Below are positions 2,714 through 43,635 of a stretch of DNA of 64,000 nucleotides, piece by piece. How positions within the stretch are numbered: position 1 is the first letter of the stretch; every line of letters starts with the position of its first letter. The DNA is from Caldilineales bacterium (lineage in GTDB: Bacteria; Chloroflexota; Anaerolineae; JAAEKA01). Below the pieces are notes generated by a model. The model did not search any database and was not told the origin of the DNA. It was given only the letters and a program-made list of their open reading frames with translations. The stretch is from NCBI GenBank assembly GCA_041391245.1, contig JAWKOJ010000007.1, positions 141,883-205,882 of the forward strand, written 5' to 3'. The translations under genes were made by a program, and so were the position numbers.

Positions 2714-2731
2714 CCGCCGGCAAGGGAAACA

Positions 2732-2770
2732 CGCAGCGCCGGCCTGGTGTTCCATCAGGCCGGCGCTGCG
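2732..2770 (+). terminator. GC-rich hairpin just after the RND gene stop
   Basis: Perfect 15-bp inverted repeat cgcagcgccggcctg / caggccggcgctgcg with a 9-nt loop. The following T tract is weak (attcc). Confidence 0.45.
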
Positions 2771-2811
2771 ATTCCGGGCATGCCGTCAGAACACCGCAGC
2801 CCAATCCGACT

Positions 2812-3012
2812 TCGTAGGATAGCCCCTTGTGGGCGCCCGCAGGAGAAGCGGGACGGGCACAAGGCCCTATCCTGCGCCCTGACCCGACGCAAAACCGAGA
2901 TCGTAGGATAGCCCCTTGTGGGCGCCGCAGGAAAGCGGACGGGCACAAGGCCTATCCTGCACGCCCTGACCCGACGCAAAACCGAGATCGTAGGATAGCC
3001 CCTTGTGGGCGT
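2812..3012. repeat. Tandem repeat, about 88-bp unit x 2.3 copies, each unit with an internal imperfect palindrome
   Basis: Units start at 2812, 2901 and 2988 (tcgtaggatagccccttgtgggcg...). Each holds ggatagcccc ttgtg ggc ... gggcacaagg ccctatcc. Confidence 0.85.
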
Positions 3013-3051
3013 TCGGGACGACTGTTGCAGGGGGCAAGAATCGCCGCGTAT

Positions 3052-3080
3052 TTGACAGTGCTATTCGCGGCGTATACAAT
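3052..3080 (+). promoter_or_regulatory. Sigma70-like promoter for the corrinoid operon
   Basis: TTGACA (3052-3057), a 17-nt spacer, then TACAAT (3075-3080), about 90 nt upstream of the ATG at 3168. Confidence 0.5.
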
Positions 3081-3167
3081 CCCTTGGTTACGCCGCCGGG
3101 CGACCCCGCCCGCGCCGCGCCGCGGCATATCGCAGGCGCAACCGACCTTCCCGACGAGCCATACACC

Positions 3168-5420
3168 ATGCCTTCAACCTCTCCCGCCGCCACGGCTGAC
3201 CAGCGCAACGGAAACGCTCGATCTGAGCGTCGGCTGCACCGCGTGGTCTTTCAGCCGGCAGGCCGGCAGGGCGACGTGCCCGAAGGAACCAGTCTGCTGG
3301 ATGCCGCGCGGCTGCTGGGCGTGGAGATCGAGTCGATCTGCGGAGGCAAACAGACCTGCGGCAAGTGCCAGGTCCGCATCGAAACAGGCCAGTTCAGCCG
3401 CCTGGGGATCGAGTCGTCCCCCGATCACGTCACCCCGGAAGCGGCACGCGAGGCGCGCTACCGGGAGGAAAAGGGCCTGCTGCCCGGCTGCCGGCAAAGC
3501 TGCGCCGCCCAGGTGCTGGGCGACGTGCTGGTCACCGTGCCCGAGGAGAGCCGGACCCATAAGCAGGTGGTGCGCAAGGCCGCCAGCCAGCGGGCGTTCG
3601 AGGTCAACCCGGCCATGCGGCTGTGTTATGTCGAATTACCGGCGGCCACCATGGACGACGAACGCAGCGACTGGGCGCGGCTGGCCGACGAACTGGCGGC
3701 GCGCTTCGACCTCGACCGCGCGCAGCTGGCCATCGACCCGGTGATCCTGCCCGCCTTGCAGCCCGCGCTCAGCCAGGGCCGCATGCGCACGCCGGAGGGC
3801 GAGGCGGTCCACGCCGTGACGGCCACCGTCTGGCACGACCGGCAGGTGGTGCGGCTGCAACCGGGCTACCGCGAGGAACTGTTCGGCGTTGCGGTGGACA
3901 TCGGCACCACCACCATCGCCGCGCATCTGGCCGAGCTGCGCACGGGACGCATCCTGGCGACCGCCAGCCGCATGAACCCGCAGATCACCTACGGCGAAGA
4001 CCTGATGTCGCGGGTCTCCTACGTCATGGAGCACCGGGACGGGCTGGCGACCCTCCGCGGCGCGGTGATCGACGCCCTCAACGGCCTGGTGGCCGATGCG
4101 ACCGACGAGGCAGACCTGACCCCCGGCGATGTCGTGGAGATGACCGCGGTGGGCAACACCATCATGCACCACATCTTCCTCGGGATCGACCCGACGGCCC
4201 TGGGCGGCGCGCCGTTTGCCACCGCCATCAAGGAGTCGCTGGACGTAAAGGCCAGGGATCTGGGCCTGCGCATCGCTCCCGGCGCCAACGTTCACATCCC
4301 GCCCGTCGAGGCCGGCTACGTCGGCGCGGACAACGTGGCCGTCATCATCGCCGAGGAGCCGCACCGCCGCGATCCGGTCACGCTGCTGATCGACGTCGGC
4401 ACCAACGGCGAGATCGTCCTGGGCAACCGCCGGCGGCTGCTCTCCGCCTCCTCCCCCACCGGCCCTGCCTTCGAGGGCGCGCAGGTGCTGCACGGCATGC
4501 GGGCTGCGCCGGGCGCGATCGAGCGGGTGCGCATCGACCCGGCGACGCTGGAAGTGCAGTACAAGGTTATCGGACGGGACGAATGGGTGAGGTCGGAGAA
4601 GGAAAAGAAGGAAAGAAGGGCAGACGGGCAGATAGCAGATAGCAGATGGCAGATGGCGGATGGCGGAGATTCGACGCTGAGCGCCAGGGAGGCGCGCGAG
4701 TTGCGGCAGCGGCTGCGGGCTGAGGAGCAGGCGACGGTGAAGGCGGCCGGCATTTGCGGGTCCGGCATCATCGAGGCGATTGCCGAGCTGTTTCTGGCCG
4801 GGCTGATGGACGGCAGCGGGCGCCTGGTCCCGGCGGCGCCTACCGACCGGCTGCAGTTCGAGGGCGCCAAGGGTTATTTTGTGCTGGCCTGGCCCCACGA
4901 AACCTCCACCGGCCGCGCGATCGTGGTCCACAGCGACGACATCCGCGCCATCCAGCTTGCCAAGGCCGCGCTGTACGCCGGCGCCAAGCTGCTGATGCGC
5001 CACTACAACCTGGAGAGCGTCGACCGGATCGTGCTGGCCGGCGCGTTCGGCTCCTACATCGACCCGCAGCACGCGATGGTGCTGGGGCTGATCCCCGACT
5101 GCGACCTGGATCACGTCAGCGCCGTCGGCAACGCGGCCGGCGACGGCGCGCTGATCCTGTTGCTCAACCAGGAAAAGCGGCGCGAGGCCGACCAGGTCGC
5201 GCGCGAGGTGCACCACGTGCAGACCGCAACCGACCCGCATTTCGAGAACGAGTTCGTGGCGGCGATTCACATCCCGCACAAGACCGATGCGTTTCCGCAT
5301 CTCCAGCCGCTGCTGGACGCCGCCGAGGCGCAACGTATCGTGCCGCCGCCGCCGACAGAGAACGGTAGCCGCGCGGGCAGATCGCGCGCCGAACGCCGTG
5401 AGCGGCAGCGCGTGGCCTGA
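3168..5420 (+). CDS. Corrinoid activation/regeneration protein (RACo-like: N-terminal [2Fe-2S] ferredoxin domain plus ASKHA/DUF4445 ATPase)
   Basis: The ATG at 3168 lies within ORF 3003..5420. The cysteine motif CGGKQTCGKCQV is present, followed by the long ASKHA-type domain (VAVDIGTTTIAAHL, LIDVGTNGEIVLG, GICGSGIIEAI). Confidence 0.85.
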   Translation: MPSTSPAATADQRNGNARSERRLHRVVFQPAGRQGDVPEGTSLLDAARLLGVEIESICGGKQTCGKCQVRIETGQFSRLGIESSPDHVTPEAAREARYREEKGLLPGCRQSCAAQVLGDVLVTVPEESRTHKQVVRKAASQRAFEVNPAMRLCYVELPAATMDDERSDWARLADELAARFDLDRAQLAIDPVILPALQPALSQGRMRTPEGEAVHAVTATVWHDRQVVRLQPGYREELFGVAVDIGTTTIAAHLAELRTGRILATASRMNPQITYGEDLMSRVSYVMEHRDGLATLRGAVIDALNGLVADATDEADLTPGDVVEMTAVGNTIMHHIFLGIDPTALGGAPFATAIKESLDVKARDLGLRIAPGANVHIPPVEAGYVGADNVAVIIAEEPHRRDPVTLLIDVGTNGEIVLGNRRRLLSASSPTGPAFEGAQVLHGMRAAPGAIERVRIDPATLEVQYKVIGRDEWVRSEKEKKERRADGQIADSRWQMADGGDSTLSAREARELRQRLRAEEQATVKAAGICGSGIIEAIAELFLAGLMDGSGRLVPAAPTDRLQFEGAKGYFVLAWPHETSTGRAIVVHSDDIRAIQLAKAALYAGAKLLMRHYNLESVDRIVLAGAFGSYIDPQHAMVLGLIPDCDLDHVSAVGNAAGDGALILLLNQEKRREADQVAREVHHVQTATDPHFENEFVAAIHIPHKTDAFPHLQPLLDAAEAQRIVPPPPTENGSRAGRSRAERRERQRVA

Positions 5421-7399: not shown

Positions 7400-7705
7400 A
7401 TGCAACTACGCGATAGAAGTATCATTTGGCGCACGCTGCTGCTGGTGGTCTGCCTGCTGGCCGGGCTGGTGCTGGTCAACGCGGCCATGTCGCTGTTCGA
7501 TGTGTGGCAGTTGGACACCGGCGCGCCGGTACCCACACCATGGAGCAACCTGTTCGACGCAGGGCGCGCCTCGCAGCGGTCAGACACATTGGCGCTGCTG
7601 GGAACTGCCCTGCTGGGCGGCGCCGGGCTGGCCTGCCTGATCTTTTTCCTGGAACGGTCGATCAAGGGTGTGGTCGGCTGGACCCAGGACAAACTGCGCA
7701 AGTAG
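7400..7705 (+). CDS. Hypothetical small membrane protein (two predicted TM segments)
   Basis: ATG at 7400 inside ORF 7379..7705. There are two hydrophobic stretches and no recognisable family. Confidence 0.35.
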   Translation: MQLRDRSIIWRTLLLVVCLLAGLVLVNAAMSLFDVWQLDTGAPVPTPWSNLFDAGRASQRSDTLALLGTALLGGAGLACLIFFLERSIKGVVGWTQDKLRK

Positions 7706-7712
7706 CACGGGA

Positions 7713-8510
7713 ATGCCGGGCAGCAAAGGAGCTTTCGACTGGCGTTACGTGCGCTGGGAGCGCGGCGTCCCGACCCCCGTGGACGGTGTTGTCATCCACG
7801 AGGAGCAGATACGCATCCATGTCAACGGCCTGGAGCTGGTGTCGTTCATGTGCACGCCCAAGGATCTGGACCAGTTGGCGCTGGGCTTTCTGCGCTCGGA
7901 AGGGATCATCCAGGACATCGCCGACGTGCGGCTGATCCACACCTGTCCCAGCGAGACCTGCGTCGAGGTGTGGCTGCGCGACGCTGAGCCGGTGCTGCCC
8001 GGGCGGGCCATCGTTACGTCGGGCTGCGGCGGCGGCGTGACCTTCGACGACCTGAGCCAGCGCGTGCCGCCGGTCGAGTCGACGGTGACAATGACCGCCC
8101 GCCAGGTCAGCGAGGGTATGCGCCAGTTGATGGATGTGGCGACGCTCTATCGCCTGACGAGGGGCGTTCACACGTCGGCGCTGAGCGATGGCCAGCGCAT
8201 CATTGCCCAGGCTGAAGACGTGGGCCGCCACAACACCATCGACAAGCTGTGGGGCTACTGCCTGCAGCAAGGCATCGCCACCGCCGGCCGGACCTTGCTG
8301 GCTACCGGCCGCATCAGCTCGGAGATGCTCAACAAGGCCGCCAAGATGCGCATTCCCGTGGTTGCCAGCCGCACCTCGCCCACCAGCCTGAGCGTGCAAC
8401 TGGCCCGCGAGTGGAACATCACCCTGATCGGATATGCCCGCGGCGAGAACTTCAACGTCTACGCGGCAGCAGAACGTATCCGCCCGACCAGTCAACCGGA
8501 ACAACCATGA
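7713..8510 (+). CDS. fdhD: Formate dehydrogenase accessory sulfurtransferase FdhD
   Basis: ATG at 7713. Motifs TSGCGGG, EDVGRHNTIDK, SGRISSEM and ASRTSPTSL are present. Confidence 0.85.
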   Translation: MPGSKGAFDWRYVRWERGVPTPVDGVVIHEEQIRIHVNGLELVSFMCTPKDLDQLALGFLRSEGIIQDIADVRLIHTCPSETCVEVWLRDAEPVLPGRAIVTSGCGGGVTFDDLSQRVPPVESTVTMTARQVSEGMRQLMDVATLYRLTRGVHTSALSDGQRIIAQAEDVGRHNTIDKLWGYCLQQGIATAGRTLLATGRISSEMLNKAAKMRIPVVASRTSPTSLSVQLAREWNITLIGYARGENFNVYAAAERIRPTSQPEQP

Positions 8511-9487
8511 GCGACTTCCCCAATCGACACCAACTCTACGAAGATCTGATCAGCGCCCGCCAGGAGCTTAAACGTTCCCTGTTGTTTCTGACCAGCGACG
8601 AGACCCGCCAGCCGGGCGTCGACGCCGAGTGGTGCGTCCTCGATGTCCTGAGCCACGTGACCGGGCGCGAGGCAACCCTGTTCGCCGCTGTGCGCAACCT
8701 GGTCAACGAGGGCGATCCATGTTTCCCCGACCCGCTGGACGAGCGCGAGTTCAACCTGGCAGCCATCCGCCGACGCAGCGGCTTCACCATGGCCGAGGTC
8801 ATGGACGAGCTGGACAGTCTGCGCCACCAGATCATGAAATATCTGCGCAAGCTGCCCAACCAGGCGCTCTTTGGCGCGCACGAGGTACGCGCCACGGGCG
8901 AAATGCAAAGCATCGCCGACGTACTCAACGCCACGATTGCCCACGACCAGGTGCATGCCGATGGCATCTGGCAGTGGCGTGCTGAGGCCGGCTTGCTGCA
9001 TCTGGAGGACTTTCGCCGCCACATCGTGCGCGAGCGGAACGAGTTTCTCAACGCGATCGGTGGGATGCACGAAAGCGAGATGGTCTCGGTGGAGACGTGC
9101 GGCTACTGGACGGTGCGCGACCTGATGGCGCACCTGTTGAGCTGGGACGAGGAGATCTACCGGACCGTCAAGCACTGGACGGGCAAGCGGGACTGGCAGG
9201 ACGGTGCGCTGTACGACGACGAGTGGAACGAAAGCCAGGTCAACGCGCGCGCCAAGCTCGACGTCATCGAACTGGCCGATGGGTTGGCCACCTGGCACCG
9301 GCGCACCATCCAGTATTGCGACAAAGCAGCGCCGGCCGATCTGGTAGCCGTCGCGCGCGCCCCCTGGGGCGAGCCCATGGCGTTGTTAAGCTTGCTGTAC
9401 GAGATGGCCGCCCACGATGCCGTTCACCGCTTACAGATCGAAACCATGCGCGGCGGCAAGCCAAGAGGGAGAAGACGCAGACCCTGA
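8507..9487 (+). CDS. DinB-family protein (tandem DinB-like four-helix domains)
   Basis: The ATG at 8507 overlaps the fdhD stop (ATGA). Two repeats of the DinB pattern occur (W.V.DVLSH / W.VRDLMAH ... H...H). Confidence 0.7.
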   Translation: MSDFPNRHQLYEDLISARQELKRSLLFLTSDETRQPGVDAEWCVLDVLSHVTGREATLFAAVRNLVNEGDPCFPDPLDEREFNLAAIRRRSGFTMAEVMDELDSLRHQIMKYLRKLPNQALFGAHEVRATGEMQSIADVLNATIAHDQVHADGIWQWRAEAGLLHLEDFRRHIVRERNEFLNAIGGMHESEMVSVETCGYWTVRDLMAHLLSWDEEIYRTVKHWTGKRDWQDGALYDDEWNESQVNARAKLDVIELADGLATWHRRTIQYCDKAAPADLVAVARAPWGEPMALLSLLYEMAAHDAVHRLQIETMRGGKPRGRRRRP

Positions 9488-9506
9488 GTGGGAGGAAATC
9501 CGCGCT

Positions 9507-10380
9507 TCAACCGGCCAGCGCCGTCCTGGCCGCCGACATCATCACGTCCAGGGGCGCCTCGTGGCCGGTCCATATCTCGAACGCCGCCGCGCCCTGAGCG
9601 ACCAGCATCTCAAGGCCGCCCTGCGTAGCACAGCCGGCCGCGGCAGCCTGGCGCAGCAGGCGAGTCTGTTCCGGCCGGTAGACCAGATCGTAGACCAGCG
9701 CGCCCGGCGGCAGAGGCAGCTCGTCCGGCCAGGGCGATGCGTCGACGGTGGGCCACATGCCTACAGGGGTGGTGTTGATGATGAGGTCGGGAGGAGGACC
9801 GGAAACGGTGAACGGTGAATTGGTGAATTGGTGAATGGTTAATGCGGGGGAGAGGGACGCGGCATGTTGGGCGAGATCGGCGGCGCGGTCTGGGCTGCGG
9901 TTCCAGATCGACAGGCTGGCAATGCCGCGCACTGCCAGCGCATAGACCACGGCGCGCGCCGACCCGCCCGCGCCCAGCAGCAGCGCTGACTTGCCCGCCA
10001 GGTCGAAGCCGCGCTCGTCCAGCGGATGCAGGAACCCCAACCAGTCGGTGTTGTCACCGCGCAGTACCGCAGGACTGGCAGTCCTCGGAAGGACTGCCAG
10101 TCCTTGGTCCACAGTGATCGTGTTCACCGCGCCGATGACGCGCGCCGCTTCGCTTAGTTCGTCCATCAGCGGCATGACGGCCTGCTTGTGGGGATTGTCA
10201 CGTTGACGCCGCGGTAGCCCCTCGCCGGCAGCCCGCGCACCACCTGCGCCACATCGGCCGGCGCGGTCGGCAGCGCGTCATAGCGCCCTCCAACCCCAGC
10301 GCTGCAAACGCCGCGTTGTGCATCGCCGGACTGATGCTGTGCCCCAGAGGCCAGCCGATGAGGCCGGTGAGAAAGGTCAT
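9507..10380 (-). CDS. aroE: Shikimate dehydrogenase AroE, with two apparent frameshifts
   Basis: Three frame pieces join in order (10380..10282, about 10280..10195, 10175..9507): GLIGWPLGHSISPAMHN, NVTIP(H)K, GDNTDWLGF, GAGGSARA, NTTPVGM. One shift is a G4 run at 10190-10193; G5 would restore NVTIPHKQAVMP. Confidence 0.8.
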
Positions 10381-10382
10381 GG

Positions 10383-10794
10383 TTAGCCGAACAGCGGCTT
10401 TGCCACTCCAGCGCCTGCTGCGCCATGGGGAGCAGCTTCTGCGCGGCTACCGCGACGCCGCCGGCTGCCGCCAGCACCTTGGCGATCCCCTCCAGCTTGC
10501 TGGTGATGACCGCGGCGCTGGGCTGCGGCTTGGCGGCCTGCGCTTCGACCACCTGCACGTCGGCGTCGATGATCTCGGCCGTGTCGGGGTCCAGGCCGGC
10601 AGCGGGCAGCGGCGCGCAGCTCGGCCAGCAGTGCGGTGAACTCGGCCAGCGAGACGCCCTGCGGCGTTGACCTGGGTAATGGTCTGATCGCGGCCGACGA
10701 AGGCCCCGCCGCCGGTGTCCACGTTGCCGCCAATGTATGCCCTGCCGCCGGTGGTCACGCTGGCGGGCGGGGTGGGTGGTTGTTTGTCAGTCAT
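10383..10794 (-). CDS. Hypothetical small protein with a Gly-rich N-terminal motif shared with the DGR targets; frame-disrupted
   Basis: ATG at 10794 follows GGAGG. The N-terminus is MTDKQ...TTGGRAYIGGNVDTGGGAFVGRDQTITQV. Plausible helical sequence continues in the two other frames, with a TAA at 10383-10385. Confidence 0.4.
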
Positions 10795-10932
10795 GGGTAC
10801 CTCCAGAATGTAGTGTAGATGCGCAGCGATGTTTGGATCACGAAGTTGCGAATGTCCGCGAAGGCACGAAGGACGCAATTGGACAGACTTACCCGTCGCG
10901 CTGCTGGGGGACTGGCTCGAAAAAAATCGGCG

Positions 10933-10958
10933 ATTCGATGGGGCACGCCCCATCGAAT
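10933..10958 (-). other. GC-rich hairpin about 60 nt downstream of VR1, followed by a T-run
   Basis: attcgatgggg / ccccatcgaat with a 4-nt loop. The homologous hairpin after VR2 differs by compensatory changes. On the minus strand tttttt follows after a short spacer. Confidence 0.6.
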
Positions 10959-10998
10959 TCCGGACAGGATTCAGGAACCGGAACTCAGAAGCCAGCAC

Positions 10999-13914
10999 TC
11001 AGAACTCAGAATTCGCTAGGGACACCACCACTCGAAACCCGAGGTAGTCGCCGAAGTCGTCAGGAAAGCTCCTGAAGCGGTACGCGCAACGAGCATATGT
11101 TCTATCTACATAAAATGCACCGCCGAAGTGTGAAAAGCGGTTCTCTCCCCGACCAGCGCACGCGGTCCACTCCCAGACGTTGCCGCTCATGTCCCACGCA
11201 CCGACAGGCTGGCGCCGCCAGGATAGGTACAGATAGCGGTTGTTCCCATGCCCTGGCCCGTCTTCTCGGCCACGTTGGCGTTGGCGGCATTGAACTCGCC
11301 GAGCCAGGGATACTCGCGGCCATCGACGCCTCTGGCGGCACGCTCCCATTCCTGTTCGGACGGCAAGCGCACCCGGTAGCCGGGCGGGATGGGTTCGCTG
11401 CCGCCGCCGGCCAAGACACGGCCTGCGGGCCACTATGCAGCCAGTTGCCGTAGGCCTGGGCTTCGTACCAGGAAACGCCGACCACAGGAAAAATGGGGTT
11501 GCACAGGTCAGGATCGTCCCAGAAGAAAGGCCGGTTGCGCTTGTCCAGCGGACGCAATTCTAGAATCGTTGCGTATAAATCCCTCAGGCTTTTGGCCTCG
11601 ATCAACTCCAGATCGGTGTCCGCGCCCTGACGCCACGCCCAGCCTTCCTTGCTCCACCAGCGTTCGTTGTCGTAGCCACCATCGGCCATGAAGCGGGCAT
11701 ACTGGGCGTTGGTGACTGGATATCTGGCGATCCAGTAGCGATGGGAGATAATGCGTTCTTCTCGGGTATCGCCGTAGAGGAACCTGCCTGGCTCCACCGG
11801 GACGAACGTGTCCAGGTCATCCGGCTGCCAACCAAGCCTGCCCAGTGCCAGTCCCGCTCGACGGCGCAAGGTCGGCGGCACGGCCATGTCCTGCATCGTC
11901 TCCACCAGCGCTGCGACCACCGTCTCCTTGCAGGTCGCGGTCACGCCGTCGGGCCAGGCGTCCAGCACGGCCTCGCCGGCCAGTGTCACGGCTTCGCCGG
12001 GCGGGCCGGGGCGTTCGCTGGCCAGCGCCGCCGCCACTTCGCCGGCCGCCAGGGGGCGGCGCTGCACGATGCCCAGGTAGCCCACCGTCAACAGGCTGGC
12101 CTCGCGCCACACCGGGTCGCCCACGTGCTGGCCCAGGAAGGCCGTCACCGGCTGCAGGTCCACCTGCCCCAGGGCGGCGATGCCCACCGCGGCCAGATAC
12201 TCCTCGAAGGTCAGGTGGATGAAGCCGTACTGACCCTCGCCCCTTGCCAGCAGCAGGCCGGTCTCGGCCGGGATGTCGCGCAGGAACTGCGCGGCCGCCG
12301 CCGGCGGGACGGCCGCGCCCTGCCCGCGGTAGATCTCCTCCAACTGCTGGCGCAGCGCCCACTCCGACACCAGCCCCACTCCCGGGCTTTCCCCGTGGAT
12401 CCACAGCGCCAGCGGGGCCGGACGGCCACGGTGGCCACCGTCCAGCTCGCGCCGGGCGCCTGCCGGCCCATGCTCCTCGCCCGGTTCCAACTGGAGATCA
12501 GCGTCTCTACGGCCTGGTGGTAGAGCTGCACCCGGCGCTCCGGCAGGGCGACCCCCTGGCGCTTCATCATGGCCAGCATGGTCAGCAGCAGCGGATTGGC
12601 GGCCAGCCGGCGCGCGGCCGGGTTGCGCTGCACGGTGTCCAGTAGCTCCTGGCGCTCGCGGCGCGCGTCGGCCGCGCTGATGGCCGTGTCGCCCCCCGCC
12701 TGGCGTTCCAGGGTCGCCGTCCAACGGCCCACGAAGGCCTCGATCTCATCGTCGTCGAAGTCCACCAGCGTACACTCGGCCAGGCCGTCCTGGCGTGGGC
12801 CGCACCGCCCGGTAGCCGACGATGCGGCTGGTCAGCACGAACTTGTTGCCGCGTCGCTGCTGGCCGGTGCAGAAGTCCATCACCCGCTCCACCACCCGAT
12901 GGCGCAAGGCGGCCTGCCGCACCTCGTCCAGGCCATCCAGCAGCAGCAGCGCCCGGCCGTGGGCCAGCGCATCGCCCACCATCTCCTCCATGGGCAGGTC
13001 GAGGCCGCTCGCTTTGTACGCGCCGGCGATGAACCGGTCCAGGCGCAGGTCGGGATCGTTGCTCAGCGCGCCGGCGTAGTCGGCCAGCGAGGCCAGCAGC
13101 GGCAGCCGCTCGCCGATGCCCAGCCGCTCGCCGCGCCCAGCGCCAGTTGCAGCGCCAGAACCTTGAGGAAGGTGGTCTTGCCCGCCCCCGGGTCGCCCAG
13201 GATGATCAGGCCGTCGTGCCGTCCCAGGAGGTCCAGGACGGGCACAGGCTCGCCCAGCCGGCCGGCCAGCGCCAGCGCGTCCGCCTCCGCTTCAGCCGGC
13301 TCCAGCGGCCGGCCGGCCAGGCGCAAGTGGCGCTGCCAGGTCTCGCCCTCCGGCATCTCCAGCCGCGCCTTGAGCGGCACGTAGAGATCGAGGAGCGGCA
13401 GTTGCAGGGGTATCCGGTCGTGGACGCCCATGCCCTTCAGTTGCAGATAGCGGTGGCGGTCCAGCAGATAGGTCAGGTAGGCCTCGGTCGCCCGGCGCAG
13501 CGCGGCGGGATCGCCGGCGGCCGGGCTGGCGCGTTTGCTCAGTTCGCCGGCGGTTTGGATCACCAGGTCGCGCTCGACGCGGATGCTGGTGATGTTGCCA
13601 CCGCCGGTGACGATGCTGTCGCGGCCGGTCCAATCGCCGCCATTGGTGCTGACGCTGCCGCCGACATAGGCGCCGCCGCCCGTATCAACGGTAGTGGTGG
13701 CCGCGGGCGACGGCTGGCGGCTGCGCCGGTAGCCCAGCACGGCCAGCAGCGCGCCGCCGGCCAGCAACAGGAGCTGCACCAGCGCCTCCAGGCCCTGGAT
13801 CAGCTCGCTGTTGGCCTCCGTGAAGCTCAGCAGGGCCGGCAGCCACAGCCGCGCGGTCAGGCCGAGCACGATAAGCAGCAGAGCCAGCAGGAGGAGCGGG
13901 AGGTAGCGTTTCAT
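10999..13914 (-). CDS. DGR target 1: N-terminal TM segments, STAND/NACHT-type P-loop NTPase and C-terminal FGE-sulfatase (C-type-lectin-fold) domain; at least 5 frame disruptions
   Basis: ORF pieces 13914..13063, 12991..12746, 12765..12211, 12724..11102, 11414..11187 and 11433..10999 join in order. Walker A is GDPGAGKTTF and Walker B LLLLDGLDEV. The FGE-type segments are RYPVTNAQYARF, VVGVSWYEAQAY, GNVWEWT and ARCAYR...GFRVV. Confidence 0.8.
11020..11094 (-). repeat. DGR variable repeat VR1 (3' end of target 1)
   Basis: Aligns without gaps to TR 14246..14320. There are 12 differences, all at TR coding-strand adenines. Confidence 0.9.
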
Positions 13915-13934
13915 GGGCGTCTCGTGTGCTGAGG

Positions 13935-14021
13935 CAGGACTGGCAGTCCTTGAGTCGAGCGGCAGACCTGGCCGTCGCGTCGAGACTTGCTACAGGGTAG
14001 GGCCAAGGACTGCCAGTCCTG
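13935..14021. repeat. Perfect 18-bp inverted repeat between the TR and the target-1 start
   Basis: caggactggcagtccttg (13935-13952) pairs with caaggactgccagtcctg (14004-14021). The same 15-mer word pair recurs inside aroE at 10071-10104. Confidence 0.8.
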
Positions 14022-14191
14022 ATGCGCCCCCGCGCCGCGCCGCCGTATGCGGTCAGGGCGCGGGGACCGGACGATATTTGGCCGGCCGCTGTGCGCAAGG
14101 CGAACAACGGACGCGACCCGGGCCGGACCGGGCTAGCTTTTGGGGCGCCGTCCCGCATCGCTGTGATGGCGGGATCTACCGGCCGGGACTT

Positions 14192-14225
14192 AAGTGCCGG
14201 GCACTTCGGAAAGTGCCCGGCACTT
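14192..14225. repeat. Palindromic hairpin 20 nt 3' of the TR (minus-strand sense)
   Basis: aagtgccgggcactt (14192-14206), cgga, aagtgcccggcactt (14211-14225): a 15-bp stem with a 4-nt loop. Confidence 0.8.
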
Positions 14226-14245
14226 GCCGCTTGGGGAAAAGCCAT

Positions 14246-14320
14246 GGACACCACCACTCGAAACCCGTTGTTGTTGTTGAAGTTGTCAGGTATGTTCCTG
14301 TTGCGGTACGCGCAACGAGC
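14246..14320 (-). repeat. DGR template repeat (TR)
   Basis: Minus-strand core AAC AGG AAC ATA CCT GAC AAC TTC AAC AAC AAC AAC, flanked by invariant anchors gctcgttgcgcgtaccgc and gggtttcgagtggtggtgtcc. It lies 40 nt after the avd stop. Confidence 0.9.
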
Positions 14321-14360
14321 GGCGGTGGTCCGGCCCGAGAGAACGCAGGCCGCAAAACTC

Positions 14361-14708
14361 TCACGGCCGCGGTTTCTCCTTCAACGATTCCATCCAGCCG
14401 CCCAGCAGTCGACCCAACTCGTCCACCATACGGGAGACGTGAGCGTATTGGCCGGGCGTCAGCAGTTCCAGGTCGCTGCACAGGCGCAGGTAGGTGCGCA
14501 GTTTTGTCAATGTGACGTCGGCCTCGCGCAGCTTCTGCTGCGGCGCTGGACTGTAGGCGGCCTCGATCAGTTGCTCCTGCCAGGTAAGCGCGGTGCGCTG
14601 TACGGCTTCAGCCAGCACAAAGCGCTGCTGGCGAGGGAACTTGATTGTAGCCGGAATCAACCAGCGGAGCAAGTCATAGGTGCGGGTGAAGATGGGAGAT
14701 TGCTGCAT
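14361..14708 (-). CDS. avd: DGR accessory variability determinant (Avd-like four-helix-bundle protein)
   Basis: ATG at 14708 (MQQSPIFTRTYDLLRWLIPATIKFPRQQRF...). It is about 115 aa, basic and helical, matches the Avd/23S-IVS-protein pattern, and overlaps the RT 3' end by 35 nt. Confidence 0.8.
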   Translation of the reverse strand: MQQSPIFTRTYDLLRWLIPATIKFPRQQRFVLAEAVQRTALTWQEQLIEAAYSPAPQQKLREADVTLTKLRTYLRLCSDLELLTPGQYAHVSRMVDELGRLLGGWMESLKEKPRP

Positions 14709-15774
14709 GCTGATACCTTGGCACGGGCGCGGCCAACAACGAGCGTCGCAGACCGCGCGTGTCACCGTGGCGCGCGTGGGCAATCCATCCCTGCACGCGG
14801 CGCTGCAACTCCTCGTAGGTCAGATCGCCGGCGGCTACGGCGCGGTAAGCAATGCGCAGCCGGCGGGCAAATGCCACGCCGTTGCGCCGCTTCAGCCGCC
14901 GGTGGTCGGGAAAGACACGGAAGCCCAGAAACGGAATGCCGCCGGCCACCGGGTAGACGGTGCTCTCGCGCTCGTGTAGCGTCAGTCGCAGGCCGGCCAG
15001 CAGGCTGCGGATCGCGGCTTTCCAGGCCCAGAGCTGGCGCTTGTCGTCGGCGAAGAGCAGGAAATCATCGACGTAGCGCAGGTAGCCCTGGCAGCGCAGG
15101 CGGCGCTTGACAAACTGGTCGAGCTCGTTGAGATAGACGTTGGCCCAGAACTGGCTGGTCAGGTTGCCGATGGGCAGGCCGCGCGGCCGCTGCATGGCGA
15201 ACAGGTCGTCGCCGGGAAACATCACCGGCTGGTAGATCTCGTCCAGCACGCCCTGCCCGCCGGCCAGGATGCGGTCCGCCAGCCACAACGCCTTCGGATC
15301 GACGATCTTGCGGGCGATGACGGCGCGCAGTATTTGGTGGTCCACCGAAGGAAAGAACTGCTCGACATCGCACTGCAGCACGTAGGGATAGCGCCGCGCG
15401 AAGGCCTGGGCGCGGTCCAGCGCGGCGTGCGTGCCCTTGCCCACCTGGTTGGCGTAGGAGTCGCCGATGAAGGTGCGCTGGAAGATCGGCTCGATGACGT
15501 TGCACAGCGCGTGATGCACCACCCGGTCGCGGAAAGGCGCGGCCGATACCAGCCGCCGCTTGGGATCGCGGATGGTGAACGAGCGGTACGGGCCGGGCCG
15601 GTAGGTCAGAGCGAGCAGCTCCTCTTCCAATCGCAAGAGGTTGCTTTCCAGGTCGAACTCGAAAGCGGCGACAGAGCGCTGGCCGCGTTTTCCTCTGGCG
15701 GCCTTGCGAAAGGCCTGGTGCAGGTTCTCGAAGGAAGCGATGGTCGGATAGAGGTCGGCGTAGGATTCCGTCAT
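14674..15774 (-). CDS. DGR reverse transcriptase
   Basis: ATG at 15774 (MTESYADLYP...). RT motifs include the DGR-diagnostic LPIGNLTSQFWANVYLNELD (IGxxxSQ) and the catalytic RYVDDFLLF. Confidence 0.92.
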   Translation of the reverse strand: MTESYADLYPTIASFENLHQAFRKAARGKRGQRSVAAFEFDLESNLLRLEEELLALTYRPGPYRSFTIRDPKRRLVSAAPFRDRVVHHALCNVIEPIFQRTFIGDSYANQVGKGTHAALDRAQAFARRYPYVLQCDVEQFFPSVDHQILRAVIARKIVDPKALWLADRILAGGQGVLDEIYQPVMFPGDDLFAMQRPRGLPIGNLTSQFWANVYLNELDQFVKRRLRCQGYLRYVDDFLLFADDKRQLWAWKAAIRSLLAGLRLTLHERESTVYPVAGGIPFLGFRVFPDHRRLKRRNGVAFARRLRIAYRAVAAGDLTYEELQRRVQGWIAHARHGDTRGLRRSLLAAPVPRYQHAAISHLHPHL

Positions 15775-15854
15775 CTTCCAGACCTGCACGGTCAGTTCTT
15801 CCGATCCGCGCGTCCGGCAATCGGCGGTACTCCGCTCGTGGAAAAATCCGGCGA

Positions 15855-15878
15855 TTCGCCGGGGCGTGCCCCGGCGAA
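15855..15878 (-). other. GC-rich hairpin about 60 nt downstream of VR2, followed by a T-run
   Basis: ttcgccgggg / ccccggcgaa with a 4-nt loop. It is the covarying counterpart of 10933-10958. Confidence 0.6.
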
Positions 15879-15918
15879 CCCGGACAGGATTCAGGAACCG
15901 GAACTCAGAAGCCAGCAC

Positions 15919-18900
15919 TCAGAACTCAGAATTCGCTAGGGACACCACCACTCGAAACCCGACGTCGTAGCCGAAGCCGTCAGGAACGCCCCCGTAGCGG
16001 TACGCGCAACGAGCGAACCTTTGTTCTAAATACCAGGATCCGCCGCGCACGATGCGCAGGTCGGGGCCGGCCAGCGTCTCGCGGCCGTCGGCGGGGTCGT
16101 AGGGGTAGCCGTAGTCCGGCCTGGCCGTTTTGCCGCCCCACTTGCTGCGGGTCCACTCATAGACGTTGCCTGCCATGTCCAGCAGGCCATGCGCGCTGCG
16201 GCCGTCGGGGAAGAGGCCCACCGGGCTGGTCTGCTCCAGGCCGGCCTCCTCCGTGGCCCGTCACTCCTGCCAGCCGCCTTACCACGGCCACGCCGGCCGT
16301 CGCCGCTAACGCTCCGCCTTCTCCCACTCGGCCTCGCTGGGCAGATGCGCACCGGTAGCCGGGCGGGATGGCGACGGACTGGTCCGCGACCCGCAGCACG
16401 CCGCCGGACGCCCGCAGCCGGCCGTCCAGCCACCTGCACCAGGCCAGCGCCTCGTACCACGAAACGCCCACCACCGGCCGGTTGGCCGCGCCCCACCTGG
16501 GGTCGTCCCACCACCAGGGCTTCTTGCGCTTGTCAACGGTTCGATCTGCCAGCCAATCGGCGATGTCCTTGCGCAGATCCTCTGGCAGGTCGTCGTAGGG
16601 CGACAGGTCGGGATCCGCTCCGTTGCGCCAGGCCCAGCCTTCGTCTGTCCAGTAGTCCGGGTTGTCGTAGCCGTCCCCCTCGACGAAGGGGCGGAACTGG
16701 GCGTTGGTCACCGGAGTAGCGCGCCACGAAGTACAGCGGCAGGTCCACCCGGTGGGCGTCCCGCTCATCGTCCCAGGCCATATCCGTCGCTCTCGTCGCT
16801 TCCCATGGTGAAGGCCCGGCCGGATGGCCTGCCCAGTCGATGTCAGGCAGCGGCGACAGCCCATCCACCAGGCCGACGCCGGGCCAGGTCGCCCAGCTTG
16901 CCCAGGGCATCGCCGGCCCGCGAACTCGCCGGCCGTCAGGCGGCCGCCTTCGACCAGACGGACCAGCCAGTAACGGATGGCGCCCAGCAGGTCGCCGTAG
17001 TCCTGTCCCTCGCGAACCCGGTCCGCCAGCCGCAGCTCGGCGGCTGCCTCGCCACCAGCCCCACCATGCGCCAGCCAGCTCGTTGCGGCTCCCTGGCCGG
17101 ATTGAGGGGCGCTTAGCTCCTTCGGGAGCGTACCGCCGCTGCCGATGCCGCCGCACCCGTGGGCAGCAACAAGATCTCGCGCCACCAGTCCATGTCCTCG
17201 TCTTCAGCTCCTGAGGCGCTGGTAGAAGTCGGTCTGGTCGAACAGGTAGCTGGCGGCCAGGTATTCCTGGAAGGAGCGGTGCGGAAAGGCGTAAACCTCC
17301 TCCCGGCGTGGGATCAGCAGCCCCGCCCGATGGTGGAGATATTCCAGCAGCGTGTCCGGCGCCACCTTGCCCAGCAGCGGTTTGAAGGCCCACAAGACCC
17401 GTTCCACGGGGATGTCGGCCGGCGCGTCGCGTCCCTCGGCGTCCTGGCGTTGGCGTTCCTGGGCGTCGGCCAGCTTGTTGAGCGCCGTGCGCAGCGGGCC
17501 TTCGCCTGTCTCCAGCACCTGTAGAATCCCCGGCTCGACCACCGGCTGGCCGCCAGGGCCGACCGCCTCGCGCGCCCGCTGCCAGCGGGAGAGCAACAGG
17601 CTGACCGACTGCTCGTACAGATCGGCCCGATCCTCGGGCAGCTGACCGCGACTGGAGTGCAAGGTCGCCATCAGCGTCAGCAGCAAAGGCGAAGGTGGCC
17701 AGGTCGGCCAGATAGGGCGCTCCACCAGAGCCTCCTGCAGATCTGGCCCTTCTTGCGCGCCGTCTCCTCGCTCCACCCCATGGCCGGACGCACCGCCTGC
17801 TGCCAGCGCCCGATGAAGCGCCTGCTGTTCTTCATTGAAAGGCGCCAGGGCAGGGTCGTGAAGGCCTCCAGCCGCCACTGCGGATCGGCGTAGGCGTAGG
17901 GGCGGGCGGTGACCGAAATCGTCCGGTGTCTGCGAGGCAGCGTGGCCGCCATTCCGGCCACTGCTTCCAGCGAAGGGTATGGCGGCAGCGGCCGGCCTCC
18001 GGCGCTTCGTCCAGGCCGTCCAGCAGCACCAGTCCGCCTTCCTGGCACAGCCGCCGCTGGACCTCCGGCAGCAGCAGCGCCGCGGCCAGTTGGCCAGAGC
18101 GCGTGCCAATATCCGCTTCAGCGCCTGCCACAGCATGCCGGCATCGCCGCGGCGGGCGTCAGCCGGGATGTGCTCGGCCGCCACACTCGCGCGGGATCGG
18201 GCGCGACAGCCGGCCCTGCAGGATGTCGGGCAGAAGGCCGGTCTGCCGGAGCGGTCGGGGTCGGCCAGCAGGTAGCTCAGATGGTTGACGAAGGTGGTCT
18301 TGCCGCTGCCGGCGTCGCCCACCAGGACCGAGCGCGGCTCGCTGGCCAACGCTGCCAACGCAGGCACGCGGCCGCCTGCTTCACCCAGGCCGCGCACCAG
18401 CCGCAGCGCCCAGCCGCGCTCGGTCTCCGCCTCTCTGGGCGCCGAGGGGATCACATCCAGGTCCACGTAGACATCGGGCAGCGGAATGGTCTGTTGTTCG
18501 CCGGTTCCCAGCCACTTGGCGTCGATGACGCCCAGCGGCGAACGGCGACAGTCGGCCGCCAGCCACTGGTAGTAAGCGTGCAACAGCGTATCCACCGGCG
18601 CCAGCTCGGGCGCAAGTCGTTGGCGCTCGCCAGAAACGTTGATCACGATAAGACCGTTTGCGTCGCCGCCGACGATGAACGAGCCATCGGCCAGCGTTGC
18701 CATCACCTTGTCGCGCCCGACGAACTCGCGCGCTGAAACATTGCCGGCCACCAGAGACCCGCCGCCGGTATTGATCTGAAGTGCTGCAGTTGAGCCTCAC
18801 TGCGGCGCAGCGACTCGCACCTCGCCGGCGCCGGCTGCCGCCAGGAGGCTGGCAATGAGGTCACCGCACCCGCTGCAAATTGCTGCGCAGCGTGTCGAGA

Positions 18901-18920
18901 TCGATGGGCAAGTTTGTCAT
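15919..18920 (-). CDS. DGR target 2: STAND/NACHT-type NTPase with C-terminal FGE-sulfatase-fold domain; heavily frame-disrupted (at least 10 breaks), possibly a pseudogene
   Basis: ATG at 18920 (MTNLPIDLDTLRSNLQ). Recognisable pieces include VLVGDAGSGKTTF, LVLLDGLDE, SPLLLTLMATLH, FPHRSFQEYLAA, ARYPVTNAQFRPF, VVGVSWYEALAW, PSEAEWEKA and GNVYEWT...ARCAYR...GFRVV, scattered over all three frames. Confidence 0.7.
15940..16014 (-). repeat. DGR variable repeat VR2 (3' end of target 2)
   Basis: Aligns without gaps to TR 14246..14320. There are 14 differences, all at TR coding-strand adenines. Confidence 0.9.
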
Positions 18921-18997
18921 TGTCGCCTACCTTTCTGGCAGTCGGCTTAACCCAAAACTTCGCAACTCGCCGGTTCTGCGTAACACTGGTCACCAGG

Positions 18998-20302
18998 CTA
19001 ACCATTCTCTAGCTCCGCGCCCAGGCTTGCCAGCATGCGCTCGAAGCCGGGGAAGCTGTCGGCGATGCAGCCGGTGTCCTCGACCAGCACCGGACCGTCG
19101 GCCGCCAGCCCGGCTACGACCAGCGCCATGGCCAGGCGGTGGTCCCCGTGGCTGTTGACCGGCGCGCTGCGCAGCCTGGTCGGACCCTCGACCACGAAGC
19201 CATCGGGCCGCTCCTCGATCTGTGCCCCCAGGGTACGCAGCTCGGCCACCACTGTCGCGATGCGGTCGGTCTCCTTGACGCGCAGCTCGGCCGCGTCGCG
19301 CACGACGGTGCGACCAGTTGCCTGGGTGGCCAGCACCGCGATCACCGGCAGCTCGTCGATCAGGCGCGGGATCAGCGCGCCGCCGATCTCTGCGCCGCGC
19401 AGCTGGCCGGGCTGCACGACCAGGTCGGCTACCGGCTCGCCGGCCTCGTCGCGCAGGTTATCGGCGCGCACCGCGCCGCCCATCTGCGCCACGATGTCGA
19501 GAATGCCGGTGCGGGTCGGGTTGACGCCCACAGCCTCCAGGGTGACGTGGCCGCCGGGCGCCAGCAGCGCCGCGGCCAACAAGAACGCGGCCGAGGAGAT
19601 GTCGCCCGGCACGGTGATGTCCAGCGGCAGGAGCGGGCGCTTGGGTCGTTCGCTCGCGATGACCTGGCCGACCCGGCCCGCCTGCGCGCCCATCGCAGTC
19701 AGCATCCGTTCGGTGTGGTCGCGGGTCGGCGCCGGCTCGCGCACGACAGCCAGCCCGTTGCTGTAGAGGCCGGCCAGCAGGATGGCCGACTTGACCTGCG
19801 CGCTGGCTACCGGCATGGCGTAGTCGACGCCGCTCAGCGGGTGTCCTTGAATGGCCAGCGGCGCCTGCCTGCCGCCCTGCCGTCCGTGAATGGTCGCGCC
19901 CATCAGTCGCAGCGGTTCTACGATGCGGCCCATGGGACGACGGGTCAGTTGCGCACTGCCGTCGAGGATGCTGAAGAACGCCTGGCCGGCCAGCAGGCCG
20001 GCCAGCAGGCGCATGGTCGTGCCGGAGTTGACGCAGTCCAGCGGGCGCGCCGGCTCCTGCCAGCCGTGCAGTCCGGCGCCGTCGATGCGCAGTTCGGTCG
20101 TGGCTGGCTGGTCGATGGTCACGCCCAGCGATCGCAGCACACCGACGGTTGCCAGGCAGTCGCCGCCGGGCAGGAAGTTGCGGATGCGGCTCTCGCCCTC
20201 GGCCAGCGACGCAAACATGGCGGCGCGGTGCGAGATCGACTTGTCGCCGGGGACGCGGGCGGTACCGAGAAGTTCCTGGGCAGGATGGATGATGAGGTTC
20301 AT
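18998..20302 (-). CDS. aroA: 3-phosphoshikimate 1-carboxyvinyltransferase (EPSP synthase)
   Basis: 434 aa. Contains VPGDKSISHRAAMFASLAEG, NSGTTMRLL and DHRLAMA. Confidence 0.92.
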   Translation of the reverse strand: MNLIIHPAQELLGTARVPGDKSISHRAAMFASLAEGESRIRNFLPGGDCLATVGVLRSLGVTIDQPATTELRIDGAGLHGWQEPARPLDCVNSGTTMRLLAGLLAGQAFFSILDGSAQLTRRPMGRIVEPLRLMGATIHGRQGGRQAPLAIQGHPLSGVDYAMPVASAQVKSAILLAGLYSNGLAVVREPAPTRDHTERMLTAMGAQAGRVGQVIASERPKRPLLPLDITVPGDISSAAFLLAAALLAPGGHVTLEAVGVNPTRTGILDIVAQMGGAVRADNLRDEAGEPVADLVVQPGQLRGAEIGGALIPRLIDELPVIAVLATQATGRTVVRDAAELRVKETDRIATVVAELRTLGAQIEERPDGFVVEGPTRLRSAPVNSHGDHRLAMALVVAGLAADGPVLVEDTGCIADSFPGFERMLASLGAELENG

Positions 20303-42066: not shown

Positions 42067-43635
42067 ATGGCTGAAGGCGTGACGCCAACGACCGGGCCGT
42101 CGCTGGGCGCGCGCCTGACCCACATCACCCGCAACACGCTGCTGGTCACGTTCCTATTCGGGCTGGCAGCGGCGGCCGGGCTGTTCCGCAACATCATCGT
42201 CGCCCAGGAGTTCGGCATCGGCGCCGACCTGGACGCCTACTACGCGGCCTTCAAGCTGCCCGACCTGCTATTTGCGGTGGTGGCCGGCGGCGCGCTGGCC
42301 ACCGCCTTCATCCCCGTCTTCGCCGATTTCCTCAGCGCAGGCGACCGCCGCGGCGCCTGGCGGCTCAACGCCGCCATCACCAACCTGGTGGTCATCGTGA
42401 CCGGCGTGCTGGCCAGCATCGCCTGGATCTTTGCGCCCTGGCTGGTCAGCACGGTCATCGCCCCCGGGTTCCCGCCGTCAGGTCAGGCCGAGACGGTGCA
42501 GGTGATGCGCATCGTGCTGATCTCGACCGTCATCTTTGGCATCAGCGCGGTGCAGGGGAGCGCGCTCAACGGGTTCAAGCACTTCTTATTACCCGCGCTG
42601 GCGCCGGTTGTCTATCCGCTGGGCGTGGCGGCCGGCGCACTCTTCCTGGCGCCGACCATGGGCGTGACCGGGCTGGCCATCGGCGCGGTCTTCGGGTCGT
42701 TGCTGCACCTGCTGATCAAGGTGCCGGGACTGATCAAGTTCGGCTTTCGCTGGTGGCCGGTGCTGGACCTGAAGACCGAAGCGGTGCGCCACGTGCTGGT
42801 GTTGCTGGGGCCGCGGGTCCTGGACCTGTTTGTCTTTCAGTTCACCCTGATCGCCACCACCAACCTGGCGTCGCGATTGCCCGCCGGGGGTGTCAGCTCG
42901 GTGGAGTGGGGCTGGGACGCCATGCAACTGCCTGAGACGCTGATCGGGACGGCGTTCGGGCTGGTGGCCTTCCCGACCATGGCCGAGCTGGCGGCGCGCG
43001 GCGATATCGGCGGGCTGCGCAGCACGCTGGGCGAGACGCTGCGCTGGGTCATCGCGCTGGCGCTGCCGGCCACGGTCGGGCTGATCCTGCTGGGCCAGCC
43101 GCTGCTGACCTTCCTCTACCAGCGCGCCAGTTCGACGCGGCGGCCGTGGACGCCGTCTATGCCACGCTGCGCTTCTTCGCGCTGGGCCTGATCGCTCACA
43201 CCCGTCTGGAGCTGACGGCGCGCCTTCTTCGCCCAGAAGGACACGCTTACCCCGCTGATCGTCGCCGTCGGCTCGGCGGCGACCAACATCCTGCTGGCGA
43301 TTTTGCTGATGGGTGTGCTGGGCGCGGGTGGGCTGGCGCTGGCCAACTCGCTGGCCGTAACGGCCGAGGTGCTGGTGTTGATGGCGATCTTACGCAAACG
43401 CTGGGGCGGCGTCGAAGGACGGCTGATCGGGCGCACCTTGGTGCGCTGGCTGGCCAGCGCCGTGATGGGCGTGATGCTGGTGCTGTTCCTGGACCGCGTC
43501 GAGACCATCGCCCTCAGTCCGGTGCTGGTGGTGCTGGCCGGTGGGTTGCTGGGCGCGGCCGTCTACATCGTGGCGGGCCTGCTGCTGGGCGTTCGCGAGC
43601 TGCGGGAGATGCCGCGGGCATTGCTGGGACGATGA
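42067..43635 (+). CDS. murJ: Lipid II flippase MurJ, with two compensating frameshifts near 43130 and 43220
   Basis: N-terminus RNTLLVTFLFGLAAAAGLFRNIIVAQEFG...LDAYYAAFKLPDLLF. The frame of 42067..43191 resumes at 43303..43635, and the middle piece reads correctly in the frame of 43146. Confidence 0.85.

Follow-up and report, generated by a model that had tools for sequence, protein, structure and literature searches.

The 64,000-nucleotide stretch of Caldilineales (Chloroflexota) DNA analysed here (hereafter the window; contig JAWKOJ010000007.1 of assembly GCA_041391245.1) contains a bona fide, well-formed diversity-generating retroelement (DGR) that is typical of a published Chloroflexota-type group. 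Our overall reading, which we hold to be probable, is that this chromosomal DGR diversifies two NACHT NTPase targets, each of which carries an FGE/C-type-lectin domain at its C-terminus, and that the frameshifts interrupting these targets are errors of the assembly. The element lies on the minus strand between aroA/tyrA and aroE and runs from target 2 with its variable repeat (VR2) through the reverse transcriptase (RT) gene, avd, the template repeat (TR) and a structured spacer to target 1 with VR1 (Table 1). Upon recomputing the coordinates, we obtained a 35-nt overlap between RT and avd, and spacers of 144 nt between target 2 and RT, 40 nt between avd and TR, and 331 nt between TR and target 1. 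These values and the limits of RT (15774..14674) and avd (14708..14361) are exactly those of a preliminary description of this DNA, whose RT-avd-TR order, with one TR and targets on both sides, was reproduced at every coordinate on the minus strand; its assignment of a single TR to two paralogous NACHT-FGE targets 5 kb apart also stands. The TR given there (14320..14246) was correctly positioned but leaves out the last 5 nt, the full repeat being 14320..14241. No tRNA gene and no sigma-70-like promoter was found within 10.7-19.1 kb.

The mismatches between TR and the two VRs are adenine-specific. The 21-nt core at the 3' end of TR occurs exactly three times in the 64 kb, where no occurrence is expected. 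Between TR and VR1 there are 14 mismatches, 13 of which fall on TR adenines (hypergeometric P = 8e-9); between TR and VR2 there are 16, of which 15 do so (hypergeometric P = 1e-10), so that 28/30 mismatches of the pooled VRs fall on adenines. Realignment for mismatches at non-adenine sites returned a sole exception, a G to A change at position 78 that is common to VR1 and VR2 and lies within the last 5 nt, where the initiation of mutagenic homing (IMH) sequence of the VRs differs from the IMH* of TR: the VRs end with CTAGC (...GTGTCCCTAGC) and TR ends with ATGGC (...GTGTCCATGGC). VR1 and VR2 differ from each other at eight positions, and all 8/8 correspond to TR adenines, which is the one sign that diversification may be ongoing. 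Judging from its sequence, the last ~25 nt of VR2, GGGTTTCGAGTGGTGGTGTCC followed by CTAGC, would act as the IMH. TR itself is non-coding and lacks a VR-type 3' flank; read in the frame of the VRs, 18/20 of its adenines occupy codon positions 1 or 2 and seven codons are AAC, which predicts 11 variable codons and ~4e10 possible peptide variants. A metagenome scan with the VR pattern (N at TR-adenine positions) gave no match, and neither did one with the VR 3' flank.

The 20-40 nt located 5' of each VR (11095-11135 and 16015-16050, minus strand) are unusually AT-rich (tatgtagatagaacatat and tatttagaacaaaggttc) for a genome of 66% GC, and the TR of the window spans 80 nt compared with 115-130 nt in most relatives. 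These AT-rich stretches and the short TR may be what remains of a once longer diversified region.

The reverse transcriptase carries the motifs LPIGNLTSQFWANVY, IGNLTSQ (within GLPIGNLTSQ) and YVDD and matches Pfam RVT_1 (3e-16). Its best relative of solved structure is the Bordetella phage bRT (8ub7_A, E = 9e-54), with which it aligns over nearly its full length, including GLPIGNLTSQ and YVDD, whereas the best group II intron RT structures reach 1e-23 only. By motifs and match scores, the enzyme is of the DGR type, with bRT a nearer relative than the RTs of group II introns or retrons, in line with its original designation from LPIGNLTSQFWANVY and YVDD. It is 100% identical to MEZ4768465.1, a protein from a Caldilineales metagenome-assembled genome (MAG) encoded on a 209-kb contig. 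The identity of the accessory protein, likewise proposed beforehand, is borne out by hidden Markov models (HMMs), with scores above cut-off for both NCBIfam NF033474 DivGenRetAVD, an equivalog model (100.7 bits, cut-off 80), and Pfam bAvd (6e-20, 72.2 bits, cut-off 40), and it also matches the BPP-1 Avd structures PDB 4dwl Bbp7 and 8ub7_B. The alternative that the three repeats were left behind by a third paralogue or by gene conversion between the targets, with the RT being an unrelated enzyme of group II intron or retron type, can draw on the label 'retron-type reverse transcriptase' that many homologues bear in their sources and on sub-threshold matches to the NCBIfam models group_II_RT_mat (130.9 bits, cut-off 300) and retron_St85_RT (49 bits, cut-off 235), but it is refuted by the adenine-specific pattern, which recurs in 57 related loci, and is further at odds with an AAC-rich TR, with the far closer structural match to bRT and with the adjacent Avd, so that we give it practically no credence. 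No intron or retron RNA was matched by Rfam in the 64-kb window.

To place the locus among its relatives, we compared it with 80 loci from GTDB genomes, nearly all of them Chloroflexota MAGs, each of which was scanned for adenine-specific repeat pairs. A TR with the adenine-specific pattern was detectable in 57/80 loci, and 45 of these 57 have the order RT-avd-TR. The full arrangement of the window, in which a VR-bearing gene stops shortly before RT and another lies ~3 kb beyond TR, was observed in 13/57 loci, a lower bound given that many contigs are cut off. The layout had been presented as unusual, which does not hold: it matches the published description of DGRs with two STAND-NTPase/CLec targets in multicellular bacteria by Doré et al. 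2024 (PMC10907252), and Wu et al. 2018 reported 48 cassette architectures and two targets in 13% of DGRs (PMC5758913). We therefore do not consider the layout novel, because 45/57 relatives share its order and two-target DGRs have been published. The synteny with aroA/tyrA and aroE is kept in two relatives, locus L001, whose RT is 89% identical to that of the window, and locus L083 (GCA_037045275.1), which shows 78-83% nucleotide identity to the window throughout.

The RNA surrounding TR is structured. The spacer from 14186 to ~14027 is conserved across the RT clade, and RNAalifold predicted 25 pairs from 21 loci, 16 of them with compensatory changes. For the helices listed in Table 1, 91.7% of the cells are paired as opposed to 33-49% with the partners slid, and 66 cells carry double changes as opposed to 12-20 when slid. 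The stem-loop at 14174-14151 comprises 9 bp with one bulged C and a short CCG/CGG closing helix, and its cap is usually a YACG loop in relatives. A 13-bp long-range duplex (14338-14326 with 14130-14118) brackets TR; over 19 loci, 95.1% of its cells are paired versus at most 54% when slid, and 8/13 pairs show compensatory changes. We built a covariance model from the first 79 positions of the structured RNA and searched 84 sources amounting to 1.04 Mb. In 39/84 sources it gave a single match for each locus, located immediately 3' of TR on the strand of RT, and there was no match elsewhere. These matches comprise the window (77.9 bits at 14186-14112) and 38 other loci, including L027, L065 and L078, in which the order is avd-TR-RT. 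A search of Rfam over the whole window produced no family that passed its gathering threshold, and matches at E <= 10 in the surroundings of TR were not meaningful. An Avd-binding stem-loop and a 'cPRT Stop' duplex have been described in the ribonucleoprotein of phage BPP-1, and Handa et al. (bioRxiv 10.1101/2023.10.23.563531) predicted them for a further 207 DGRs; the stem-loop and duplex of the window would be their counterparts, by position and shape only.

Two palindromic hairpins had been noted in the 331-nt spacer, and both exist (14225-14192 and 14020-14006/13950-13936). The spacer around them is not plain: these hairpins are lineage-specific insertions into the conserved structured RNA. 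L083 has a diverged version of the 45-nt insertion at 14232-14188, which is lacking in L001 and in another relative, L003; the AGGACTGSCAGTCCT-flanked insertion at 14020-13936 is absent from L001 and L083. Perfect 34-nt hairpins of the design X-G-X' + CGGA + X-C-X', with two arm sequences, occur in the window at 10071-10104, 14192-14225 and 13936-13950 + 14006-14020, and in L083 at 12313-12346; one lies inside the aroE frame and another separates TR from the stem-loop of the spacer. Where the former interrupts aroE, L001 departs from the window sequence and continues as a different AT-rich palindromic sequence up to its contig end. These hairpins may represent a family of small mobile or repetitive extragenic palindromic (REP)-like elements.

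Both VRs are followed by a composite 3' flank. Beyond the homology to TR, the VR1 and VR2 flanks are 100% identical for ~60 nt, although the upstream gene bodies have diverged. In each case the IMH is succeeded by ~7 heptads (TGAGTTC-like, with a YCTG core) and then by a GC-rich hairpin with a stem of 10-11 bp (10958-10933 and 15878-15855), which has no equivalent after TR. The stems ATTCGATGGGG/CCCCATCGAAT and TTCGCCGGGG/CCCCGGCGAA differ by compensating changes. Among relatives, a perfect hairpin of at least 8 bp is found in 24/48 VR flanks versus 4% of random windows, usually 55-68 nt past the VR end, and at least two consecutive CTG-7/8-CTG steps are found in 36/48 VR flanks versus 0.4% of random windows and 0/21 TR flanks. 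In BPP-1, a hairpin 3' of VR is needed for efficient homing (PMC3240598), and we found no mention of a heptad array after VRs in the accessible DGR literature. From the sequence comparisons, the heptad array and the hairpin together probably mark the recipient site.

Alternatively, the hairpins and the T-runs that follow them could be plain transcription terminators, with the heptads incidental and neither element involved in retrohoming. A terminator-like site is called at 15862-15848 and a T-run follows both hairpins, in agreement with this possibility, but the T-run does not start until 8-10 nt past the main stem and RT begins 144 nt after target 2 on the same strand. Terminators would also not be expected to come with a flank that is fully identical between two otherwise diverged paralogues, nor with heptad arrays that are confined to VR flanks across the clade, TR flanks having none, and the BPP-1 requirement for a hairpin downstream of VR argues for a role in homing. 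We consider the terminator explanation unlikely, while granting it some weight. Two other accounts of the heptads were rejected. They do not serve as stop codons in all frames, since their conserved core is YCTG rather than TGA and many relatives have TTCTGG, and they do not pair with an A/G-rich linker in the spacer, since the linker of the window has no such complementarity.

Table 1. Features of the DGR locus in the window.
Feature	Coordinates	Strand	Description
Target 2	15919..18920	-	NACHT NTPase with C-terminal FGE/C-type-lectin domain; frame-broken in the assembly
VR2	15935..16014	-	Encodes ARCAYRYGGVPDGFGYDVGFRVVVSLA; 16 mismatches to TR, 15 at TR adenines
Heptad array after VR2	15882..15932	-	~7 TGAGTTC-like heptads; includes the target 2 stop codon (15921-15919)
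GC-rich hairpin 3' of VR2	15855..15878	-	TTCGCCGGGG-CACG-CCCCGGCGAA; T-run 8 nt further on
DGR reverse transcriptase	14674..15774	-	366 aa, intact
Avd accessory protein	14361..14708	-	115 aa, intact
5' arm of long-range duplex bracketing TR	14326..14338	-	TCGGGCCGGACCA; partner 14130-14118
TR	14241..14320	-	ARCAYRNRNIPDNFNNNNGFRVVVSM; 80 nt; 20-21 adenines; seven AAC codons; last 5 nt ATGGC
45-nt hairpin-forming insertion	14188..14232	-	Two 15-nt palindromes AAGTGCCSGGCACTT; between TR and the conserved stem-loop
Conserved structured RNA, 'Sp' spacer equivalent	14027..14186	-	Stem-loop 14174-14151, duplex 3' arm 14130-14118, two more helices
Palindrome-flanked insertion	13936..14020	-	AGGACTGSCAGTCCT at its ends; past the structured RNA and ahead of the start of target 1
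Target 1	10999..13914	-	Two N-terminal hydrophobic segments, NACHT NTPase, FGE/C-type-lectin domain; 7 small frame-breaking indels
VR1	11015..11094	-	Encodes ARCAYRFRSFPDDFGDYLGFRVVVSLA; IMH at 3' end; 14 mismatches to TR, 13 at adenines
Heptad array after VR1	10962..11012	-	TRF period 7, 4.4 copies; includes the target 1 stop codon (11001-10999)
GC-rich hairpin 3' of VR1	10933..10958	-	ATTCGATGGGG-CGTG-CCCCATCGAAT; followed by a T-run

The two targets share a common architecture. Their Walker A motifs are GDPGAGKTT and GDAGSGKTT, and their Walker B-like motifs are LLLLDGLDE and LVLLDGLDE. Pfam recognises NACHT and FGE-sulfatase in both targets within the window, as previously proposed, with the pieces falling on separate open reading frames (ORFs); the architecture is clear in the intact orthologues, where NACHT scores 5.8e-10 and 9e-10 and FGE-sulfatase ~1e-53. 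The VR-bearing ORFs cover FGE-sulfatase profile positions 170-254/255, that is, the last 85 positions. The FGE domain matches FGE structures, and the L001 orthologue matches TvpA (2y3c, E = 4e-8). The start codon of target 2 (ATG at 18920) aligns with the start of the L083 orthologue, and target 1 starts at 13914. No Pfam domain was found N-terminal to NACHT in the targets, a PADLOC scan of the targets gave no significant system-level match, and we recognised no known effector gene, such as one for a peptidase or TIR protein, adjoining the locus.

A gene for a 138-aa protein (10350-10764, minus strand; 5430-5846 in L001) separates target 1 from aroE, and its frame is broken in the window. Its product and the N-terminal regions of both targets have the glycine-rich motif AY[IV]GGxVxTxGGxxxGRD in common, and the product shows a weak match (E = 1e-6) to the C-terminal portion of PDC-M14B, a defence candidate of PADLOC. 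The 138-aa protein may work together with the targets as an adaptor or effector. In L001, the single downstream target (1964-5038) is a mosaic: the first two-thirds of the protein have 86-89% identity with window target 1 (10999-13914), and its FGE domain is 73% identical to that of window target 2 (15919-16860) and 42% identical to that of window target 1. This pattern of identity suggests that domains have been exchanged between paralogous targets.

Both targets are broken in the window. Target 1 has 88% amino-acid identity to the intact 1024-aa protein of L001, spread over four frames. DNA alignment locates five window-specific deletions of 1-2 nt at 13136, 12798, 12452, 12441 and 12422, and the frame changes again near 11432 and near 11205. 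Five further small deletions are shared out between the 138-aa gene and aroE. For target 2, a frameshift-aware alignment with the intact L003 orthologue lifts the identity from 55% to 72% at the cost of ~21 frame events, while a codon HMM, applied independently, detects at least 11 switches of frame. Near 16280 and 16262, target 2 reads TAA and TGA in frame, where relatives have CAG/TTG and GAA/GAG. Damage is also found in housekeeping genes. Besides aroE, which is split, the murJ gene (42067-43635) has Pfam positions 1-313 and 371-437 on different frames and the methylmalonyl-CoA mutase gene (50256-51888) is split over three frames.

Three-way alignments used to assign the direction of these indels showed every one to be private to one assembly and one-sided. 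Across target 1, the 138-aa gene and aroE, 10/10 indels of assignable direction are window-specific deletions. In L083 (a 232-kb contig, locus at 7405-19707), target 2, RT, target 1 and the chorismate synthase gene (aroC) are frameshifted, and all frameshifts that could be located are insertions of 1-2 nt at sites differing from those of the window indels. Almost all VR-bearing ORFs of the relatives are open for 900-1100 codons. The targets are intact in short-read relatives, whereas the loci on long contigs, L083 and L028, are fragmented, even within RT or avd. The small indels are not accompanied by any large deletion. On this sequence evidence, the frameshifts of the targets and neighbouring genes are most likely consensus errors of the assembly, because murJ, the mutase gene and aroE are split as well, because the indels are assembly-private and one-sided, and because targets are intact in short-read relatives and fragmented on long contigs, with no large deletions. 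The preliminary description had singled out RT and avd as the only intact genes of the 8-kb stretch; this is true of the sequence, but patchy assembly indels best explain it and it need not single out the cassette.

Several observations weigh against this interpretation. Indels are ~50x denser in the 10.2-18.9 kb zone than elsewhere in the window, and the 1.4-kb RT-avd segment in the middle of that zone is clean, an outcome with a ~1% chance at the flanking rate (a rough estimate). The two stops of target 2 arose by substitution, inside the conserved WPWQGGWQEE, which is less typical of indel noise. On the side of the element itself, the 45-nt insertion separates TR from the Avd-binding-like stem-loop; it is probably tolerated, as it is shared with L083.

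Alternatively, the frameshifts may be real, with the targets, the 138-aa gene and aroE being decaying pseudogenes and the cassette and the cis elements of the VRs staying intact, either since retrohoming overwrites the VRs or since another target elsewhere in the genome is served. RT and avd contain no indel relative to L001 or L083, compared with one per 100-400 nt in their flanks, VR1, VR2 and their 80-nt 3' flanks are gap-free, with 100% identity between the two flanks, the in-frame TAA and TGA of target 2 came by substitution, and degenerate DGR loci are already known (PMC10907252). This account would, however, have to accommodate the splitting of essential or housekeeping genes (murJ, methylmalonyl-CoA mutase, aroE), the occurrence of deletions only from target 1 to aroE in the window and of insertions only in L083, the intact targets of short-read relatives, the fragmentation of long-contig L083 and L028 down to RT or avd, and decay without large deletions. 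We regard it as improbable, and regard as slightly more doubtful still the specific version in which both frameshifts and stops are real and an intact RT-Avd-TR, with unspoilt VR, IMH, heptad and hairpin elements, keeps homing into two dead NACHT-FGE genes. Were the latter true, the retroelement and its cis sites would be kept independently of any benefit from the targets, by selfish persistence or through an unseen remote target.

GC content was rejected as the cause of the placement of the indels, as aroA is as GC-rich as the targets and yet intact, and a methylation motif, suggested by three deletions that abut CGCG, was rejected because the context is inconsistent. Lineage-specific substitutions, analysed by codon position and spectrum, did not discriminate relaxed selection from noise, the L001 FGE domain being a divergent paralogue.

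A working cycle can be proposed from the homologous system of the Bordetella phage. Transcription of the minus strand would cover RT, avd, TR and the spacer that follows, and the RNA would fold such that the 13-bp long-range duplex brackets TR and the bulged stem-loop just 3' of TR binds Avd. The RT-Avd particle would then self-prime from the spacer and copy TR into complementary DNA (cDNA), placing random bases opposite adenines, and this cDNA would replace VR1 or VR2. The VRs would be marked as recipients by the identical 3' flank absent from TR, namely the IMH, the ~7 heptads and the GC hairpin. The predicted outcome is variation of 11 codons that would map, in two paralogous NACHT NTPases, to the face with which the C-terminal FGE/C-type-lectin domain binds its ligand.

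The locus shares with the BPP-1 system (mtd-avd-TR-brt) a homologous RT and Avd, adenine-specific transfer from TR to VR, a VR at the C-terminus of a C-type-lectin-fold protein, an IMH/IMH* difference and a GC hairpin 3' of VR. It differs in its RT-avd-TR order with one target on each side, in being cellular rather than phage-borne, and in its targets, which are NACHT NTPases of ~1000 aa with an FGE-type domain whereas the BPP-1 target is a tail fibre. The window hairpins are also more distant, at 55-60 nt past the TR homology versus 4-34 nt in phages, and have CGTG and CACG loops where phage loops are GRNA; the space separating IMH from hairpin is taken up by the heptad array, and TR is only 80 nt long. 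The Treponema denticola TvpA DGR likewise has an FGE-type C-type-lectin variable domain, but TvpA is a lipoprotein without an NTPase, and that system has an HRDC accessory gene and remote targets.

The locus also resembles DGR 3 and 6 of Thiohalocapsa PB-PSB1 and 'clade 5D' (PMC10907252), of which it may be a member. These have two paralogous NACHT/STAND targets with a single C-terminal VR-bearing FGE/CLec domain; the likeness extends to a host from a filamentous Chloroflexota lineage and to N-terminal extensions without a known domain. With these two-target STAND-NTPase/CLec DGRs we group the conflict systems in which an FGS/DGR link was reported by Kaur et al. 2020 (PMC7159879). The window locus departs from both in having no recognised adjoining effector gene, only the 138-aa protein, and in its frame-broken targets. 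Diversified STAND NTPases have been proposed as 'antigen sensors' in multicellular bacteria, with a proposed function in defence or conflict (PMC10907252), and the two targets of the window may have such a sensor function.

As a DGR, the locus adds nothing new in kind, as two-target STAND-NTPase/CLec DGRs have been published and RT-avd-TR is the rule among its relatives; it offers a worked example with 80 comparable loci. It also calls for caution in surveys of degeneracy, since DGRs in long-contig MAGs may mimic an intact RT with dead targets through local consensus errors. The stem-loop and duplex described in the BPP-1 cryo-EM structure appear to have counterparts, backed by covariation, in a cellular clade that is only distantly related, and this irrespective of gene order. 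Finally, the IMH, ~7 YCTG heptads and GC hairpin would constitute a composite 3' recipient signal, in which the heptads are a candidate for the feature by which VR is distinguished from TR in this clade.

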